Shown piece by piece: positions 24,041 through 32,237 of a DNA stretch of 64,000 bases. A program made the translations under genes and the position numbers. Location: the NCBI GenBank assembly GCA_050949345.1, contig JBMNFN010000001.1, forward strand, positions 1,571,602 to 1,635,601. Reading direction: 5' to 3'. Under the pieces are notes generated by a model. It saw only the letters and a list, made by a program, of their open reading frames with translations, did not search any database and was not told the DNA's origin. The DNA comes from Anaerolineae bacterium (GTDB taxonomy: Bacteria > Chloroflexota > Anaerolineae > UBA1429). Each line of letters begins with the position of its first letter. Position 1 is the stretch's first letter.

Positions 24041-25078
24041 ATGTCAGATCGGATCGTATCGCCGGGCCTGCTGGGTGAAGAGAGCCCGGCAGATACCAGC
24101 CTGCGCCCCCGCAACCTCAGCGAGTACATCGGCCAGAGCCGAGTGGTAGAAAACCTGCAGATTGCGCTCCGCGCGGCGCAGGGCCGTGGCGAGCCGCTGG
24201 ACCACGTGCTGTTGTATGGCCCCCCCGGACTGGGCAAGACCACGCTGGCCTATGTCATCGCCGCAGAGATGGGCGTCAACGTCAAAGTCACCTCCGGCCC
24301 TGTGGTCGAGCGCCCCGGTGATCTCGCTGCCATACTCACCAACCTGCGCGAGGGTGACATTCTCTTTGTGGACGAAGTCCACCGCCTGAGCCGCACGGTG
24401 GAGGAGGTCCTCTACCCTGCCATGGAGGACTTTTGTCTCGATCTGATGATCGGCAAAGGCCCGGCTGCGCGCAGCATCCGCTTGAATCTGCCCCGATTTA
24501 CCCTGATCGGCGCCACGACGCGTATGGCGTTGCTTACCTCGCCATTGCGAGACCGTTTTGGGGTGGTATATCGCCTCGACTTTTACGACATCGAGGCCAT
24601 GCGCGATATTGTTCATCGCTCGGCAACCATCCTCGGCATCCCCATCGATGAGGCGGGAGCCGACGAGGTGGCTTCCCGTGCGCGTGGCACGCCGCGCGTC
24701 GCCAACCGGCTGCTGCGCCGCGTGCGCGACTATGCCGAGGTCAAGGGCACAGGGGTTATCGATCGTGCCACGGCAAGCGCAGCCCTGGCCATGTTGCAGG
24801 TGGACGCCCTCGGGCTGGACGAGTCTGACCGCCGTGTGCTGCACACCCTGATCGACAAGTTCGATGGCGGCCCGGTGGGCCTCGACACACTGGCGGCGGC
24901 CCTGAACGAGGACGCAGATACGATCATGGACGTGTATGAGCCCTACCTGATCCAACTGGGCTTTTTGGAGCGTACCCCTCGCGGACGGATGACCACGCGG
25001 CATGCCTACAGCCACCTGGGGCTCACCGCCCCCAGGCCCGAGGCCAAACCCGACTCTGGGCAGGAGCGCTTGTTCTGA
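24041..25078 (+). CDS. ruvB: Holliday junction branch migration helicase RuvB
   Basis: [48 protein letters not shown]. Confidence 0.97.
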
Positions 25079-25884
25079 TGGCGGTTACGGTGTTCGATCA
25101 GGGGGGCCAGAGGCTGTCGCCCTGCAGCGAGGAACGCGCCACACAGCTGGTCGCGAGTGGCACGGCCCAATGGTCCGCCAAGGGTACCGCGATCCGGCTG
25201 CAGCGTGCGGTGCCTCTACCGCATCGGCAGGTACCGCCCAAGCACCCCTTGGCCGATCGACGCACCTTGCTGCACATCTGTTGCGGTCCATGTGCCACAT
25301 CGGCGGTGCCAATCCTCCGTGCAGCAGGCGCCCGCCTGACGGGCTACTGGTTCAATCCCAATATTCACCCGCAAGCCGAGTACCAGCGACGCCGTGACAA
25401 CCTGGCACGATATGCTGCCCTGGTGGACCTGCCGATTATCTGGCACCCAACTTTTTCACCACGGGCCTGGGTACAGTGTCTGGGCGGCACACCAAGTGCC
25501 CCCGAGCGCTGCCTTGCCTGTTACAGGCTGCGCCTTGAGGCGACCGCGCGGGTCGCAGCGGAAGGGGACTTTGAGGCCTTTACGACCACGCTGCTGACCA
25601 GTCCCTATCAGGACATCGACGCCCTGGGCAGGATCGGAGAAGAGCTGGCGGCAGCCTATGGCGTTCCCTTTTACTGGGAGAACATGCGCCGGGGATATCG
25701 CGGTCAGGCTGAACAGTGTGCCGCGCTGGGGTTGTATCGGCAGCGTTACTGTGGTTGCGCCTATTCAGCGCGCGAGGCAAAAGGGGCGACAGCGGCGGGC
25801 AAGCGCACAGAGCACCCTGCCCTCGTCCCAGCGGCATCGCATAACGGCGCAACTACTGACTTGGTCGCTGACCGACCATGTTAA
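25078..25884 (+). CDS. queH: Epoxyqueuosine reductase QueH with N-terminal PLMP/RRXRR-like extension
   Basis: LLHICCGPC, NPNIHP, RCLACY, FTTTL, YRQRYCGC; adjacent to queA. Confidence 0.88.
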   Translation: MAVTVFDQGGQRLSPCSEERATQLVASGTAQWSAKGTAIRLQRAVPLPHRQVPPKHPLADRRTLLHICCGPCATSAVPILRAAGARLTGYWFNPNIHPQAEYQRRRDNLARYAALVDLPIIWHPTFSPRAWVQCLGGTPSAPERCLACYRLRLEATARVAAEGDFEAFTTTLLTSPYQDIDALGRIGEELAAAYGVPFYWENMRRGYRGQAEQCAALGLYRQRYCGCAYSAREAKGATAAGKRTEHPALVPAASHNGATTDLVADRPC

Positions 25885-26903
25885 CCGCCGATTTTGACTA
25901 TGTCCTGCCGCCCGATCGGATCGCCCAGGAGCCTGTAGAACCGCGGGATTCTTCGCGACTCCTGGTGCTCGATCGTTCTTCGGGCGCTATCCAGCACAGC
26001 GTCTTTCGCAACTTGCTGGATTATCTGCACGCGGGAGACCTGCTGGTCGCCAACATCACCCGGGTGCTGCCGGCGCGCATGTATGCCCACAAGGTTCCCT
26101 CGGGCGGACAGGTTGAGTTGCTGCTGCTGTCGCGCCTCGATGATCTGCGCTGGCGGGCGCTGGTCACCGGTCGCCGGGCGTTGCCAGGGCAACAGCTGAC
26201 CATCGGCGAAGGACCCGACGCGCTGGGGGCGGTGGTGGAGGAGGTGACCGCTGACGGCGGTCGCGTGATACGCTTTGCAGCTCCGCCAGAGCCCCACTTG
26301 AAACGCCTCGGGGAGATGCCGTTGCCTCCCTACATCCACACACGGCTGGCAGATCAGGAGCGATACCAGACGGTCTATGCACAGGCGAGTGGGTCGGCAG
26401 CTGCTCCCACCGCCGGGCTGCACTTTACTCCAGAGCTGCTGGCTGCCCTTCAGGGGGCGGACATCGAGTGGGCGCAGGTGGTGCTCCACATCGGTTTGGA
26501 CACCTTTCGCCCGGTGAGTGCCGAGCGCGTGGAGGACCATCAGATTCACACCGAATATTGTGAGCTGGATGCCACTGCCGCCGCCCAATTGAACCGGGCC
26601 CGCCGGGAAGGCCGCCGCATCATCGCTGTGGGCACTACATCTGTCCGGGTTCTGGAAACCATGGCGCAGCAGGCAGAGGACGAGATCGCCCCGTTTGCCG
26701 GCAACACGTCCCTGTTCATCTATCCCGGGTACCGTTTCCGGCTGGTGGACGGGCTGATTACCAATTTTCATCTCCCCAAGTCCTCGTTGCTGATGCTGGT
26801 GTCAGCCTTTGCGGGGGTGGAACACATCCGGCGCGCCTATGCCACCGCTATCGACTCTGGCTATCGTTTTTTCAGCTTTGGCGACAGCATGTTGATCATC
26901 TGA
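25878..26903 (+). CDS. queA: S-adenosylmethionine:tRNA ribosyltransferase-isomerase
   Basis: DFDYVLP..IAQEP, PLPPYI, YQTVYA, SAAAPTAGLHF, VGTTSVR, TNFHLPKSSL, YRFFSFGD. Confidence 0.97.
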   Translation: MLTADFDYVLPPDRIAQEPVEPRDSSRLLVLDRSSGAIQHSVFRNLLDYLHAGDLLVANITRVLPARMYAHKVPSGGQVELLLLSRLDDLRWRALVTGRRALPGQQLTIGEGPDALGAVVEEVTADGGRVIRFAAPPEPHLKRLGEMPLPPYIHTRLADQERYQTVYAQASGSAAAPTAGLHFTPELLAALQGADIEWAQVVLHIGLDTFRPVSAERVEDHQIHTEYCELDATAAAQLNRARREGRRIIAVGTTSVRVLETMAQQAEDEIAPFAGNTSLFIYPGYRFRLVDGLITNFHLPKSSLLMLVSAFAGVEHIRRAYATAIDSGYRFFSFGDSMLII

Positions 26904-26988: not shown

Positions 26989-29900
26989 ATGGGCAACCAG
27001 GCTATGGACAATGACTATCCTCTCATAACCCGCAAGATCCAGATACCGGATCGCTCCGGCACCCTGTTGCGCCGCGAGCGGCTGGTGGGGTTCCTGCACC
27101 GCAACACCAACCATCGATTGGTGCTGATCACCGCGGGGGCGGGCTATGGCAAGACCTCGCTGCTCATCGACTATGCCCACGATGCAGACCTGCCGGTGTG
27201 CTGGTACAGCCTGGACGGCAGCGATGGGCATGTGTTTACCTTTATCGAGTACCTGGTGGCTTCGTTGCGCCGCCGCTTTCCCGCTTTTGGAGACTCGGTA
27301 CTGCGTGCCTTGCGCGAGTTTACCGGCCCACCCGAAGACATAGAGCCCTTCATTCGGCTGCTGCTGGATGAGATGCAGCGCTCGATCCATGACTATTTCG
27401 TCCTCATCCTGGATGACTACCAGGAGGTTCTCGAGAGCGAGCCGGTGAACGCCCTGGTGGACGGCCTGCTGCGCTATCTCCCAGAGAATGGCCACATCAT
27501 CATCGCCTCGCGTGCCATACCCCGACGCCTTACTCTCACCAGACTGGCCGCCCGCGAGGATATCGTGGGACTGGGAGTGAGCCAGCTCAAGTTCACCCGA
27601 TCCGAAATCGAACAGATCCTGCAGCTGCGGGGCCTGACCGACCTGTCGCCCGAGCAACTGGATGCACTGTCACAGCGCTCCGAGGGCTGGATCACCGCCA
27701 TTCTGCTGGCCGCCCAAACCCAATGGTCGGATACGATTCAACGGATCGTGGCCCTCTCGGGCTCGCTGGATACGGTTTTTGAGTACCTGGCGCGGGAGGT
27801 GCTGGCGCAGCAGCCCGAGTCCGTGCAGCACTTTATGCTCGCCAGCTCTATCCTGGAACAGATGAGCCCTCCACTGTGCGATGGTCTGCTGCAGACCACG
27901 GATTCGGCGCGTACCCTGCGCATGCTGTCTGAGCAGGGCCTGTTTACCTATGAAATCAGTAACGCTGCCGGTTGGTATCAGTACCACCAATTGTTCCGCG
28001 AGTTTCTGAGGGCGAAACTGGAAGCAGAACACCCGGCAGAGTATCGAGAGCTTTGGTTGCGGCATGCGCGCATGATGGCCAACCAGGGTAACTGGGCACG
28101 GGCCATCGACGGATACATTTCCGGTGCGGCCTTTGTCGATGCTGCCGGAGCCATCGAAATCGTTGCGCAGGATTATTTTGACACGGGACGCTCTGCCACA
28201 CTGCTGGGTTGGATCGAGCGGCTGCCCAACTCTGTGGTCATGAGACACCCGCGCCTGCTGCTGATCGGTGCCCAGATCCACACCGAGGCGGGTGCCTATG
28301 AGCGGGCAGAGGCGCTGCTCGAGCCGGCCTATTGTGTCTATCGCGAACGGTCCAGCAATATCGGCACCGCCCGGGTCCTCGTGCAGCGCGCCATCGTGCA
28401 ACGACTGCAGGAACGTTACCGTGAGGCCATTGTCAGCTTTGACGAGGTGTTGCGAACCGTCAGCTTTCGACAGGATCCCTCCTCGGTGGTCAAAGCCCAT
28501 CACAACCTGGGTATCTGCTACCAGATACTGGGGGACACCGACCGCGGACGCCAGGAGATGCGCACAGCACTGGATCTGGCCCAATCGCAGGGCGATATTC
28601 AAAGTGCCGCCTATGTGGCGCACGACCTGGGTAACAGCTACTACCTTGAGGGCTCAATCGATGAGGCCCGTCGTTACATGCATCAGGCACTGTTTCACTG
28701 GCGCAAGGTGGGCAATCCCAGCGATCTGGCGCTGACGCTCCAAGGGCTGGGTGTGCTGCATCACCATCTGGGCGAATACACAGAAGCGCAAAACCGCTTT
28801 GAGGAGAGCCTGGAAAAGGCGCGCAGCGTGGAGAACCGCAGGCTGGAGGCGTACGCCCTCTTGAACAGCGGCGATCTGGAGCGAGACCGTGGCCGTTACC
28901 AGCAAGCCCTGCGGTTCTATGCCGAGGCGATGCAGACCGCTTCTGCAGTGAGGCAAAGTGGACTGATGCTGTACATTCTCGCATCGCAGGGTGAGACCTA
29001 CCGCCTGCAGCATCGCACAACAATGGCACGCCAAACCCTGGCCGAAGCGCTTGACCACAGCGTCAGGCAGGGCTTGGAGGAGCCGATCGGGCTCTGCCAT
29101 TTGGCCTTTGGAGCCCTGTCGCTGCAGGAAGGTGCGCTTGGCCAGGCTGCGGAGCACCTGCAGGCAGCACTGGAGCTGCTCATGCGATCCGGCTCGCAAA
29201 GAGACCTGGGCAGGGTGCACATTCAACGTGCGCTGCTGGGCCACCTGCGCAATGATCGAGGCAGTGTGCTGGCCGAACTCTTTCGAGCCGGAGAGATTGC
29301 TTTTCACCTGGGCACGGAGCAATTCATCGTCGCCGAGGGCGCCCATGCCTTGCCGCTGCTGCCTTATATGAGTGAGTCACGCATCGCCGGTCTCGACCCC
29401 ACCAGCATCCGCGCACAAATTGAAGAACTGTTCCCTTCTGTGGTGATGCTGCCACACCCTCGCCGTGAGCGTCCCAACGTCCAGCTGGAGCTGCTGGGGC
29501 TCGATCGGGCGCGCATTCTGTATCAAGGACAGGACGTGCACGACTTTGACTCGGCAGTGGCGCGGACACTGGCCTTTTTGATGGCCGAACATCCCGGGGG
29601 ACTGCACAAGGAACGTATTGTGGACCTGCTGTGGCCAGACACCTCGCAGGCGAGAGCCGAGAGCCTGTTTCACTCGACCCTTTACCGGCTTCGCAAAGCG
29701 CTGGACAAGCAGGTGGTGGTGGCGCAGGGGAGCATCTATCAGCTCAATCCAAACCTCACCTACCGGTACGACGTAGCGGACTTTGAACAGCTGGCACACA
29801 AGGGCCTCCAGGAGGGGTACAGCGCGCACTATGCCCGCATGAACGCGATCGATCTGTACCAGTCGGACTATCTCGAAGCCTGCGACCACCCCTGGTGCAA

Positions 29901-30216
29901 CGATCTGCGCAACACACTGCAGCATCTGATGATCCAGCTGTTGATCAAAGAGGCCGAGTACCTGGCTGAGGCTGACCAGGTGCTCCACGCCGAGACGCTG
30001 TACGTGCGGGTGCTGGCGCTCGATGAATTTGAGGAGCGCGCCCATCGGGGTGTCATGTGGTGCCGTGCTCGCCTGGGAGACCTGGCTGGCGCAGGACGCC
30101 AATTCCGCGAGTGTAACCGCATCACCTCATCAGAGCTCGGCGTGTCTCCCCAACCCGATACGCTTCGCCTCAACGCCCTGATCCAGGAGGGCGAGGTGCC
30201 CGTCAAACCGATCTGA
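26989..30216 (+). CDS. MalT-like STAND ATPase-TPR-winged-helix-BTAD transcriptional regulator
   Basis: Walker A AGAGYGKT, Walker B LILDDY, SEGW, YQYHQLFREFL, many TPR-like repeats, LLWPD...STLYRLRKAL (OmpR-type wHTH), YDVADF...LY..DYL...W...ELGVSP (BTAD). Confidence 0.9.
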   Translation: MGNQAMDNDYPLITRKIQIPDRSGTLLRRERLVGFLHRNTNHRLVLITAGAGYGKTSLLIDYAHDADLPVCWYSLDGSDGHVFTFIEYLVASLRRRFPAFGDSVLRALREFTGPPEDIEPFIRLLLDEMQRSIHDYFVLILDDYQEVLESEPVNALVDGLLRYLPENGHIIIASRAIPRRLTLTRLAAREDIVGLGVSQLKFTRSEIEQILQLRGLTDLSPEQLDALSQRSEGWITAILLAAQTQWSDTIQRIVALSGSLDTVFEYLAREVLAQQPESVQHFMLASSILEQMSPPLCDGLLQTTDSARTLRMLSEQGLFTYEISNAAGWYQYHQLFREFLRAKLEAEHPAEYRELWLRHARMMANQGNWARAIDGYISGAAFVDAAGAIEIVAQDYFDTGRSATLLGWIERLPNSVVMRHPRLLLIGAQIHTEAGAYERAEALLEPAYCVYRERSSNIGTARVLVQRAIVQRLQERYREAIVSFDEVLRTVSFRQDPSSVVKAHHNLGICYQILGDTDRGRQEMRTALDLAQSQGDIQSAAYVAHDLGNSYYLEGSIDEARRYMHQALFHWRKVGNPSDLALTLQGLGVLHHHLGEYTEAQNRFEESLEKARSVENRRLEAYALLNSGDLERDRGRYQQALRFYAEAMQTASAVRQSGLMLYILASQGETYRLQHRTTMARQTLAEALDHSVRQGLEEPIGLCHLAFGALSLQEGALGQAAEHLQAALELLMRSGSQRDLGRVHIQRALLGHLRNDRGSVLAELFRAGEIAFHLGTEQFIVAEGAHALPLLPYMSESRIAGLDPTSIRAQIEELFPSVVMLPHPRRERPNVQLELLGLDRARILYQGQDVHDFDSAVARTLAFLMAEHPGGLHKERIVDLLWPDTSQARAESLFHSTLYRLRKALDKQVVVAQGSIYQLNPNLTYRYDVADFEQLAHKGLQEGYSAHYARMNAIDLYQSDYLEACDHPWCNDLRNTLQHLMIQLLIKEAEYLAEADQVLHAETLYVRVLALDEFEERAHRGVMWCRARLGDLAGAGRQFRECNRITSSELGVSPQPDTLRLNALIQEGEVPVKPI

Positions 30217-30262
30217 CATCGGTGGGAGCCATCGTATTCCATTCTCTCCCTTCCTGTGGTGC

Positions 30263-30283
30263 TTTCGTCAGTATTTCGTCAGT
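30263..30283 (+). promoter_or_regulatory. 10-bp direct repeat with 11-bp period, candidate SARP/BTAD-type operator
   Basis: TTTCGTCAGT-A-TTTCGTCAGT, followed 9 nt later by -10-like CACAAT (30293-30298). Confidence 0.55.
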
Positions 30284-30536
30284 CCTTTGGTACACAATAT
30301 CTCCACATGCATATGGAGCCCGATCGATCCGTGGGCAGATGAGTTCCCTGCGGACCAGCTTTACTCTCCTCAGATTGACACGGGATTCGCCTCACCCCCC
30401 CATGCCGGCGGGTGCACGTCAAGAGGAACGCGCTGCGGCCCGATTTCGCAACTCGCAACATTCGTGCCATTATGGAAGCGTTGGTTGGTACGGGCGGATG
30501 TCTGGTACCGTACCGCAATTTGCAGGAGTCGGGGTA

Positions 30537-30680
30537 ATGAAAAAGCTCTACTTTCGCGTGATGTACGTGCTCCTGGCCGTTGGAGCCCTTGTGATTGCCG
30601 GTGGCGCCCCCATTCCGTGGAGTGGAACCGGTGGCGGCACCAGTACCGTCGTTGAGGCCCTGCGGCTGCTGATCCCATAG
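30537..30680 (+). CDS. 47-aa signal-peptide-like precursor peptide
   Basis: AGGAG (30524-30528) 8 nt before ATG; MKKLYFRVMYVLLAVGALVIAGGAPIPWSGTGGGTSTVVEALRLLIP has a basic N-region, hydrophobic core and AGGA-PIPW. Confidence 0.75.
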   Translation: MKKLYFRVMYVLLAVGALVIAGGAPIPWSGTGGGTSTVVEALRLLIP

Positions 30681-30758
30681 GCCCCCCTGCTTTATGACGG
30701 TAAGGTCACCGGGCATCGAGTGGCCACCCACAGGCTGTAGCGCTCCCACCCCAACACC

Positions 30759-31340
30759 ATGATCCTGTTGCTGTTGGCGAGCGTGGCGGTGGTGGTTGCG
30801 CTGCTCACCGGTGGCAGGCTGTCGGGCCTTGCAGCGCCAGGCTTGCGCGTTGGCTGGCTTGCCTTTGTTGCGTTGGCCTTGCAGGTGTGCGCGGTGTACG
30901 CCCAGCAGCCAAGTTGGCTTCCCAGAACACTGCTGGTGGCATCCCATGTGATGCTGCTGGCAGTGGTCTTTTTCAACACCCGTGTTCCGGGTGCCCCATT
31001 GATTGGGGCGGGGTTGCTGGCTAATGCGGCCGCGATGCTGGCCAATGGCGGGTACATGCCAGTAACACCCGACGCCGTAGCCCGTGCCGGCCTGGAATCC
31101 TTGATCACCACCACCGACAGTGGCGTACGGATCCTCGGCTCCAAGGATATCGTCCTCAGCGCAGCAGAGACGCGCCTTGCCATACTGACAGACACTCTCG
31201 TCATGCGGTGGCCAACGGGCACCGTGCTCAGTATTGGCGATGTGCTGCTGGCCCTGGGGGTGTGCTGGTTCCTCATTGCTGCCCTGCATGGCGGCAGCAG
31301 TGGTCAGCCGACGGAGCAGAAGGAACAAGCCCCTCTCTGA
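30759..31340 (+). CDS. DUF5317-like membrane protein, putative aspartic intramembrane peptidase
   Basis: About 5 TM segments; GGRL, LQ, N, GLLAN...ANGGYMPV, LxxLTD and SIGD motifs recognised from memory of DUF5317. Confidence 0.72.
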   Translation: MILLLLASVAVVVALLTGGRLSGLAAPGLRVGWLAFVALALQVCAVYAQQPSWLPRTLLVASHVMLLAVVFFNTRVPGAPLIGAGLLANAAAMLANGGYMPVTPDAVARAGLESLITTTDSGVRILGSKDIVLSAAETRLAILTDTLVMRWPTGTVLSIGDVLLALGVCWFLIAALHGGSSGQPTEQKEQAPL

Positions 31341-31643
31341 TCCATCCACTGCTGCAGGATCCGCTTGGCACCGCCATTGTGGATCTCGCATTGCAGCAGG
31401 CACTCTTGGAGTTCGCCGTGCTGCGGGCCATCCACGCCACAGCGCTCCAGGGGCTGGCCTCATCGGTCCTCAAGCGGGTCATCAGCAAAGATCTGCCTGC
31501 CCTGCGGCCACGGTTGGCCTTGGACGGTGTGCGCCACTGAGGAGCGTTGGCCCGCAACAAGCCACGTTGCGCTGGCGGGCGCCCGTCCAGAGCACGGTTT
31601 GGAGCGTGGCAACGCAGCAGCTAGACTGTGCGCTACGGAAGGG

Positions 31644-32237
31644 GTGGACATGCTGGTCGCAACACACAATTTGGGCAAGTTGCGGGAATTTCGCTCGCTG
31701 CTGGCAGGGCTGGACCAGGACGTGCTCGGGCTGGAGGATGCGCGGATCTCTGTGGAGGTCGTAGAGGACGGCACAACCTTTGCCGAAAATGCCCTCCTCA
31801 AGGCACGCACCATCGCCCGCCTCTCTGGGGTGGTGACGCTGGCAGACGACTCGGGCCTGGAAGTAGATGCACTGCACTCAAGGCCAGGGGTGTATTCAGC
31901 GCGCTATGGGGGTCCGCAGGCCAGCGACAGGGACCGCTGCCTGCTGATCCTGCAGGAGCTGAGTGATGCTCCCGAGCAACTCCGGCGGGCACGCTTCCGC
32001 TGCGCCCTCGCCGTGGTCTGGCCGGACGGCCGCACCGCCCTGACCACGGGGACATGCGAGGGCCAGATCAGCAGGGAGCTGCGCGGCACCGATGGCTTTG
32101 GATACGATCCCATCTTTTACGTACCAGAGCACGGTTGCACCATGGCCCAGCTGCCTCAGGAGGAAAAAAACAGGATCAGCCACCGTGCGCGGGCCGCGCA
32201 AGCGATGGTGACCCTGTTGCGACGTCTGTCCCTCTGA
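31644..32237 (+). CDS. rdgB: Non-canonical purine NTP pyrophosphatase (HAM1/RdgB)
   Basis: ATHNLGKLRE, EDGTTFAENALLKA, ADDSGL, PGVYSARY, GFGYDPIF, KNRISHR; real start ~31644/31650 rather than 31365. Confidence 0.95.
   Translation: MDMLVATHNLGKLREFRSLLAGLDQDVLGLEDARISVEVVEDGTTFAENALLKARTIARLSGVVTLADDSGLEVDALHSRPGVYSARYGGPQASDRDRCLLILQELSDAPEQLRRARFRCALAVVWPDGRTALTTGTCEGQISRELRGTDGFGYDPIFYVPEHGCTMAQLPQEEKNRISHRARAAQAMVTLLRRLSL

Follow-up and report, generated by a model that had tools for sequence, protein, structure and literature searches.

A conserved STAND-SARP regulator, small peptide gene and DUF5317 membrane protein in Chloroflexota: a candidate autoinducing peptide-signalling module

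What is the function of a large activator, a very short reading frame and a small membrane protein that stand together between two housekeeping genes of an Anaerolineae bacterium? The locus lies in a 64,000-nucleotide stretch of contig JBMNFN010000001.1 (the window). Between queA (25878-26903, + strand) and a Ham1/rdgB domain (from ~31650, +) it comprises a 1075-residue regulator (26989-30216, +), a 320-nt gap with one direct repeat (30217-30536), a 47-codon open reading frame (ORF) set within a longer open frame (30537-30680, +), and a 193-residue DUF5317 membrane protein (30759-31340, +). The original prediction, made from the letters of the window, described these as a four-part co-oriented cassette forming a peptide-signalling module with a membrane peptidase, and every part is found where it was placed. 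In relatives the small ORF and the repeat are again found in this order, and the perfect repeat is unique in the genome, so the cassette is more than a chance arrangement. We propose that it may be a self-contained, positively regulated, autoinducing peptide-signalling loop, a reading to which we give a little less than an even chance. The conserved triad, the operator and the synteny with signalling genes lend partial support to the predicted signalling module, whereas the peptidase label has none.

The regulator combines three parts. Residues 12-377 are homologous to the nucleoside triphosphatase (NTPase) of MalT (PDB 8bob, E 1.5e-35), and a Walker A motif (GAGYGKT) and an hhhhDD motif in the translation place it in the MalT-like clade of STAND NTPases. 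The NCBIfam MalT model matches residues 12-535 only (E 2.3e-75) and its 254 bits fall short of the equivalog cut-off of 537, the C-terminus being BTAD and not a LuxR-type helix-turn-helix (HTH). TPR sensor repeats occupy residues ~420-790 (TPR_12, E 1.3e-26; TPR_MalT also matches), followed by the BTAD domain at residues 928-1065 (E 3.2e-11, 44.2 bits against a cut-off of 22.1). The SARP module of AfsR in the PDB aligns to residues 863-1065 and the SARP BagI/FevR to residues 874-1066, delimiting a SARP module (winged helix plus BTAD) at ~840-1065; Trans_reg_C gave no match at E <= 0.01, and the winged-helix call therefore rests on the AfsR and FevR alignments. The TPR_12, BTAD, 8bob and AfsR matches bear out the predicted MalT-like ATPase/TPR/winged-helix/BTAD architecture, and by its domains the protein is a MalT-like STAND activator in which a C-terminal SARP DNA-binding module has taken the place of the LuxR-type HTH. 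Its Pfam, NCBIfam and PDB matches include no RRNPP receptor family, only generic TPR. It is single copy, with no paralogue in the 2.76-Mb window genome, and in 12 of 16 loci from genomes of the same genus, family and class an orthologue (40-70% identity) immediately precedes the peptide and DUF5317 genes.

Heptamer direct repeats in 11-nt phase beside a promoter are the known type of SARP target. The gap behind the regulator carries such a candidate operator (30263-30283, +), in which TTTCGTCAGT occurs at 30263-30272 and 30274-30283 with a spacing of 11 nt, each copy containing the heptamer CGTCAGT; in its direct repeats, periodicity and closeness to a presumed -10/-35 region it has the form of a SARP box. 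AfsR-RNA polymerase entries are among the regulator's PDB matches. All 12 relatives' gaps that were read contain two to four CGTGAGT-type heptamers in 11-nt phase, stopping 9 nt ahead of TATACT or TATGAT. The window counterpart of these hexamers is CACAAT (30293-30298, +), 9 nt past the last heptamer, which we infer to be the -10 element from the spacing conserved with relatives; a consensus promoter scan upstream of the peptide gene returned no sigma-70-like site. More broadly, of 29 regulator-to-DUF5317 gaps 14 contain GT[GCA]AG in 11-nt phase, as do 0.4% of shuffled gaps, and at least 11 of the other 15 have lineage-specific repeats in 10-12-nt phase at the same place. Such differing repeats would be expected if box and DNA-binding domain diverge together. 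The phased operator is thus real, recurs in relatives' gaps and is lineage-specific.

The operator also bears on what the regulator may control. The perfect pattern CGTSAGT-N4-CGTSAGT has one site in the window genome, inside the module, and one box with a single mismatch lies elsewhere; a reversed control pattern in the same setting gave four matches. In four of five relative genomes the box pattern has exactly one genome-wide match, each time between regulator and peptide gene, and in the fifth the box has diverged. As each of five genomes contains the phased repeat only once, the activator seems to act at one target, and as far as detectable on the peptide and DUF5317 genes alone.

Between the candidate -10 element and the peptide gene lies a putative 5' leader of ~240 nt (30299-30536, +), unusually long for this module: the peptide ATG stands ~250 nt from the operator in the window and ~200 nt from it in one genome of the genus, whereas most relatives have 50-100 nt. 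An 18-nt palindrome (30301-30318) follows directly on the presumed -10, and the AGGAG ribosome site (30524-30528) stands at the end, 8 nt ahead of the ATG. Rfam gave nothing at E <= 1 on 30100-30900, and comparison of the leader with same-genus loci showed no nucleotide similarity outside the peptide gene and no decayed peptide copy.

Is the small ORF a gene? Averaged over 253 pairs of 23 distinct orthologues, nucleotide identity is 0.64 at the first codon position, 0.77 at the second and 0.42 at the third. As third positions diverge most, the ORF is coding and its protein is under purifying selection, so that the 47-residue signal-peptide-like ORF of the original prediction is not only present but conserved. 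Judged by the codon-position pattern, the ribosome-binding site and the tandem arrays in relatives, it is a real gene. A profile of 26 peptides recovered 151 protein clusters (E <= 0.001) among 5.8 billion sequences; all of them lack a Pfam domain, and no name other than "hypothetical protein" is given. In one of four metatranscriptome runs a 251-nt contig identical to the window covers 30510-30760, a weak hint of expression, given that such contigs carry neither strand nor ends and that the library may contain DNA. The other three runs gave no contig on the locus, which is not evidence of absence.

The peptide has a conserved front and a variable end. In the window it begins with a basic N-terminus (MKK), continues as one hydrophobic helix to A-x-G-A-P (residues 21-25) and ends in a 22-residue tail starting IPWSGTGGG. 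The alignment shows the same plan, an M-K/R-K start and a hydrophobic helix of ~20 residues leading to the A-x-G-A-P junction, of which the G and P are invariant in 26 sequences and both A residues at least 90% conserved. An aromatic residue usually stands three positions past G-A, and this G-A-x3-aromatic core agrees with the pattern first proposed ([AS]G[AG]xxxW). Past the junction the tail is hypervariable in both length (5-22 residues) and sequence, pairwise identity falling from 0.49 in the helix-to-junction part to 0.22 in the tail. Most relatives end right after a Gly run, other lineages have C-x-x-C or T-G-W, and in the genus of the window the tail is longer by 10-13 residues (locus L054 ends earlier). 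Ala at -3 and Gly at -1 fit the signal-peptidase cleavage rule; the secretion signal itself was read from the sequence by eye. As in RRNPP systems, a small pro-peptide gene with a predicted secretion signal adjoins the regulator, and this arrangement is conserved.

The peptide gene is amplified in several relatives. One same-genus genome has six tandem copies, five of them intact and near-identical (period 174, 4.8 copies, 98% matches), another genome has three, and five more loci have two. The last copy of the array is degenerate in two same-genus genomes (L067:5809-5922 and L068:5794-5922), where A-x-G-A-P is altered and charged or Pro residues break the helix; such a copy may be decaying or may be a variant of its own.

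The membrane protein belongs to DUF5317 (PF17248, residues 29-172, E 3.7e-30, 105.4 bits against a cut-off of 25). In an alignment of 41 sequences N73, G85, N89, M100, P101, D145, G160, D161 and G167 are invariant, within or near the motifs NGGxMP (96-101), L-x-D and S-x-G-D, the last two containing D145 and D161. The AlphaFold model (pLDDT 90.9) has five helices, and the stretch that joins helices 4 and 5 is predicted as a loop of 62 residues containing a small sheet. The loops carry net charges of +2.6 (loop 1), +1.3 (loop 3) and -1.2 (the long loop), which by the positive-inside rule would leave the C-terminus inside and expose the N-terminus and conserved loop to the outside. The junction and tail of the peptide would lie on the same outer face as this loop.

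The proposal that DUF5317 is the peptidase of the module found no support. A Foldseek search of the model against the PDB gave 0 matches at E <= 0.001 (best 0.77), the family profile gave 0 among PDB sequences at E <= 10, two Atlas searches returned DUF5317 clusters alone and no other named family, and neither AgrB nor a protease family matched in Pfam or NCBIfam. The protein accordingly has no solved fold or sequence relative and lacks the similarity to AgrB-type, A8, A24, S26, CAAX or rhomboid enzymes by which a membrane peptidase would be assigned. With its two invariant Asp residues (D145 and D161), it might still be an enzyme. Co-folding of DUF5317 (alignment A1) with the peptide (A3) scored 0.25 and 0.27 against a mark of 0.32 and is used neither for nor against binding. 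A full-text literature search, supplementary files aside, found no publication mentioning DUF5317 or PF17248.

How far do the three genes travel together? Among the 16 close-relative loci the small ORF is directly upstream of DUF5317 in 14; of the two exceptions one locus ends 41 nt upstream and the other has an HD-GYP gene instead. The order regulator, peptide gene(s), DUF5317 is kept in 12 of the 16, and as five of these persist where queA and rdgB were not found in the fetched stretch, the module moves as a block. In a second sample of 151 Chloroflexota genomes DUF5317 occurs in 48 (it is also present in several other phyla); the small ORF is directly upstream in 11 of the 29 loci examined, nine of which show a same-strand homologous regulator end further upstream. 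A third, public sample took one genome per species and yielded 483 DUF5317 relatives, the best 80 of these 483 loci being examined. Here the peptide ORF was found in 31 (29 by hidden Markov model (HMM), two, L085 and L108, by eye), the regulator in 28 and both in 27. Four loci have the peptide but not the regulator: in three of them the sequence stops within 400 nt upstream, and the fourth (L079) lacks the regulator in 3.9 kb. All public loci bearing peptide or regulator have Chloroflexota record titles (Anaerolineae, Chloroflexia and others). The HMM was built on motif-filtered sequences, so counts of peptide-positive loci lean to the motif. The samples overlap, eight of the 80 public loci being contigs of earlier loci (L067-L073 and L097 correspond to L052, L051, L053, L065, L062, L055, L066 and L060). 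The small ORF foreseen beside DUF5317 homologues is thus conserved in each sample (14 of 16, 11 of 29 and 31 of 80 loci).

A DUF5317 tree of 107 leaves bears on how these counts are to be read. At one split (support 0.945), the 50 leaves of one side include every one of the 44 sequences linked to regulator or peptide; of the six remaining leaves on that side, three sit at contig ends. Because the labels come from the neighbourhood, which relatives share, this single clade reflects co-inheritance and not independent association; with eight duplicates and a context shared by descent, the counts describe one old, vertically inherited subfamily.

In eight regulator-type loci an Os1348-family ORF of 90-166 residues directly follows DUF5317, with a gap of -24 to 129 nt (L077:5065-5364, L081:1571-1849, L082:6568-6849, L083:6603-6875, L084:6547-6999, L089:5206-5481, L091:6749-7120 and L096:6699-7199). 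The matches to Os1348, a family of RiPP-like precursors in the NHLP clan, range from E 5e-15 to 3e-08, three of the eight above the cut-off. Two of these proteins end G-[AV]-P-x-W...C, recalling the small peptides.

DUF5317 also keeps other company. In the phylum sample it is fused to MFS_3 in proteins of ~670 residues (L022, L024 and L028) and elsewhere follows an MFS gene. In the 48 public loci with neither peptide nor regulator, 23 same-strand upstream neighbours were scanned; 13 are membrane HD-GYP proteins and two GGDEF-EAL-GAF proteins, with a MASE9 match in four of the 23. Upstream of nine of the 13 HD-GYP genes stands a second class of small ORF (L111, L117, L122, L130, L132, L133, L137, L141 and L145, the last with two copies), and two of the other four loci end at a contig edge; in L124-L126 such ORFs lie downstream of DUF5317. 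Members of this class have 30-55 codons, an M-K-W start, a basic stretch and one helix, and end in [AS]-G-A, 1-3 residues, K-W and 1-2 further residues. They are found under Bipolaricaulota, Thermotogae, Caldisericota and Anaerolineae titles, and the order peptide, HD-GYP, DUF5317 occurs in several phyla. Two loci have DUF5317 at the N-terminus of a PAS-GAF-GAF-GGDEF protein of ~925 residues (L100:1277-4060 and L111:1557-4325).

From the second class and these other contexts it follows that the pairing of a small helix-plus-tail protein with DUF5317 is far wider than the module of the window. Judged by its domains, the partner of the pair is always a signalling or transport protein, which favours a signalling role. 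The synteny with signalling proteins that had been anticipated is borne out by the regulator in 28 of 80 loci, by HD-GYP genes at 13 of the 23 other upstream neighbours and by the PAS-GAF-GGDEF fusions. As DUF5317 is fused to PAS-GAF-GGDEF, a receptor or sensor role is at least as favoured as that of an enzyme.

These observations can be assembled into a circuit. The activated STAND-SARP protein would bind the two phased heptamers through its C-terminal winged-helix/BTAD module and recruit RNA polymerase to the promoter just downstream, like AfsR-type SARPs; that the regulator binds this box and drives the peptide and DUF5317 genes is very probable. From the operator promoter a single transcript would presumably cover the pre-peptide gene, of which the window has one copy and relatives up to six, and DUF5317. 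The pre-peptide would insert with its basic N-terminus inside and the A-x-G-A-P junction and tail outside, and insertion or export with the tail outside is likely on the features of its sequence. Since the junction fits the -3/-1 rule, a short Gly/aromatic-rich peptide would probably be released. The outer loop of DUF5317 (NGGxMP, D145, SxGD161) would act on it, either as receptor or as processing or export factor. We consider it highly likely that the two form a functional pair at the outer face; we assign the part of peptide receptor only tentatively, and think that of maturase or export factor unlikely. Finally, the signal would return to the TPR sensor of the regulator, closing the autoinduction loop, a step for which the case is almost evenly balanced, with doubt slightly the heavier.

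In other phyla the peptide/DUF5317 core would be wired to cyclic di-GMP (c-di-GMP) enzymes in place of the STAND activator. On a broader and doubtful view, a peptide of ~30-50 residues (helix, G-A-x3-aromatic, short tail) and DUF5317 would form the ligand/receptor or precursor/maturase core of an unrecognised communication system in several phyla, with interchangeable outputs: a single-target STAND-SARP in Chloroflexota, and HD-GYP/GGDEF c-di-GMP enzymes in Thermotogota, Bipolaricaulota, Caldisericota and others.

Several observations weigh against the signalling loop. Its main weakness is that the sole detectable target of the regulator is the module itself, with no downstream output gene visible, an unusual feature for quorum sensing that would suit an effector module just as well. 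Secretion, cleavage and sensing of the peptide are steps that we infer from sequence. Across Pfam, NCBIfam, PDB and Atlas DUF5317 resembles no known peptidase, transporter or receptor, it is also fused to MFS_3 transporters, and 48 of the 80 public loci have it without either peptide or regulator. The tail of the second peptide class is conserved (K-W) and not variable, as suits a structural membrane partner more than a diffusible signal. The leader of ~240 nt between operator and peptide gene is likewise unexplained by the loop.

Much of this evidence would suit an inducible membrane complex that carries no signal, in which the small protein stays uncleaved as a single-pass partner of DUF5317 and the two act as an envelope or membrane-state sensor or effector, switched on by the regulator in response to an unrelated cytoplasmic ligand, as MalT responds to maltotriose. 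A regulator whose single target is the pair itself fits such a complex, the G-A-x3-aromatic core is shared by both peptide classes (with the K-W tail fixed in the second), and DUF5317 does serve as the N-terminal membrane domain of the PAS-GAF-GGDEF protein and in MFS_3 transporters. In the portion available of the preprint that names MASE9, ligand binding by that domain is held to be probably intramembrane (10.1101/2021.11.05.467447). Five to six near-identical peptide genes for a single DUF5317 gene, however, argue against a 1:1 subunit, the junction is invariant and shaped like a cleavage site, and the tail is hypervariable in its 5-22 residues and their sequence, with C-x-x-C ends in some lineages. 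We regard this complex as a serious explanation but a rather unlikely one.

Tandem precursors with a conserved leader and a variable core are also typical of bacteriocins and of RiPPs (peptides made by ribosomes and modified after translation), and SARPs are classically cluster-situated activators, for example of antibiotic clusters. The peptide could in that case be an antimicrobial, metal-binding or surface-active end product, with DUF5317 as leader peptidase, exporter partner or immunity protein and the STAND-SARP protein as pathway-specific activator. The DUF5317-MFS_3 fusions recall peptidase-containing exporters, and the Os1348-family genes behind DUF5317 point the same way, Os1348 being the precursor of a bacteriocin-like cluster (Os standing for Pseudomonas sp. 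Os17) in the accessible part of its description (PMC7726476). Yet no Os1348-family gene was found in the window genome, the module has no conserved gene for a modification enzyme, an ABC exporter or immunity, Gly-rich tails of 5-12 residues are very short for an antimicrobial, and a bacteriocin does not match the HD-GYP and GGDEF contexts; a secreted end product is thus improbable. An anti-phage role is far more so. Defence systems commonly contain STAND NTPases that have TPR sensors, and an Avs-like protein might use the membrane protein and peptide as abortive-infection effectors, but a PADLOC scan gave a generic TPR match alone (E 1.1e-13) and no defence-specific family for any of the three proteins, for which reason we set this reading very low. 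The regulator moreover ends in a SARP module with a cognate promoter box and not in a nuclease or protease effector, and the module is vertically inherited at a stable housekeeping position within the genus.

The flanks of the module show further regularities. Upstream, ruvB, queH and queA form a tight co-oriented block (24041-26903), with a 7-nt overlap of queH and queA. This block also borders the module in one same-family genome and in the three same-genus loci that extend to it. Downstream, ~310 nt separate the DUF5317 stop from the likely rdgB start (31341-31652), and a longer rdgB ORF from 31365 would add 96 residues ahead of the Ham1 domain. As no terminator-like site was found downstream of DUF5317 in the window, read-through into rdgB is possible. 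DUF5317 adjoins rdgB also in L002 and L003, both without the peptide.

The analysis gives DUF5317 a first functional context and brings out a small-protein family, so far without a name, with at least 151 clusters. With its single target and readable operator, the STAND-SARP activator is a clean case that should serve well for studying how regulators of this kind are turned on, and the circuit is directly testable because it needs just three genes and ~300 nt of DNA. If the loop does signal, gene-encoded peptide communication extends past Bacillota into Chloroflexota; if the multi-phylum core is also true, the first gene-encoded peptide signalling in Chloroflexota would come with a direct link from peptide to c-di-GMP. 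The record titles of the relatives and the matching RNA library point to digester, bioreactor, groundwater and other environmental samples.

How does the module compare with known systems? In the RRNPP systems of Bacillota (SHP/Rgg, PapR/PlcR, Phr/Rap, AimP/AimR) the gene of a 20-50-residue pro-peptide likewise adjoins that of a cytoplasmic TPR-type regulator, the pro-peptide runs from a basic N-terminus through a hydrophobic stretch to a short mature part at the C-terminus, and autoinduction is expected. Unlike the 250-500-residue HTH-TPR receptors, the regulator here is a 1075-residue STAND NTPase with a C-terminal SARP; receptor homology is lacking, a dedicated DUF5317 protein is part of the unit, and the phylum is Chloroflexota. 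The module would work like an RRNPP system, but on these four counts it is not a member. The main text of the RRNPP_detector paper has no occurrence of Chloroflex, BTAD or SARP (PMC10075063). Searches for RRNPP in Chloroflexi, or for BTAD, STAND or a small peptide in Chloroflexota, gave nothing relevant among the matches listed. AgrD and AgrB offer a second parallel, a small membrane-associated precursor beside a small polytopic membrane protein under autoregulation. DUF5317, however, has no AgrB family match, and whereas AgrD has an amphipathic N-terminal leader, a thiolactone core and a C-terminal recognition tail, the precursor here has a signal-anchor helix, A-x-G-A-P and a tail, without Cys in the window peptide.

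The regulator itself stands between two known types. With MalT of E. coli it shares the homologous N-terminal NTPase and arm, and activation presumably by ligand-triggered oligomerisation; unlike in MalT, a SARP module replaces the LuxR-type HTH and the sensor consists of TPR repeats, and the score lies well under the equivalog cut-off (254 bits against 537). With AfsR-type large SARPs it shares the winged-helix and BTAD domains (homologous to AfsR residues 63-282), the combination of NTPase and TPR, and heptamer direct repeats in 11-nt phase at a fixed distance upstream of the -10. The SARP is N-terminal in AfsR, whereas the order here is inverted (NTPase, TPR, SARP), and the target is a peptide operon and not an antibiotic cluster. 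The main text of the HD-GYP preprint makes no mention of DUF5317 or of a small partner ORF (10.1101/2021.11.05.467447). Although the module of the window contains no c-di-GMP enzyme, the likeness to MASE9-HD-GYP and other membrane c-di-GMP enzymes lies in the family as a whole: other phyla place DUF5317 directly after a membrane HD-GYP gene, and it is also found as the N-terminal membrane domain of a PAS-GAF-GGDEF protein.

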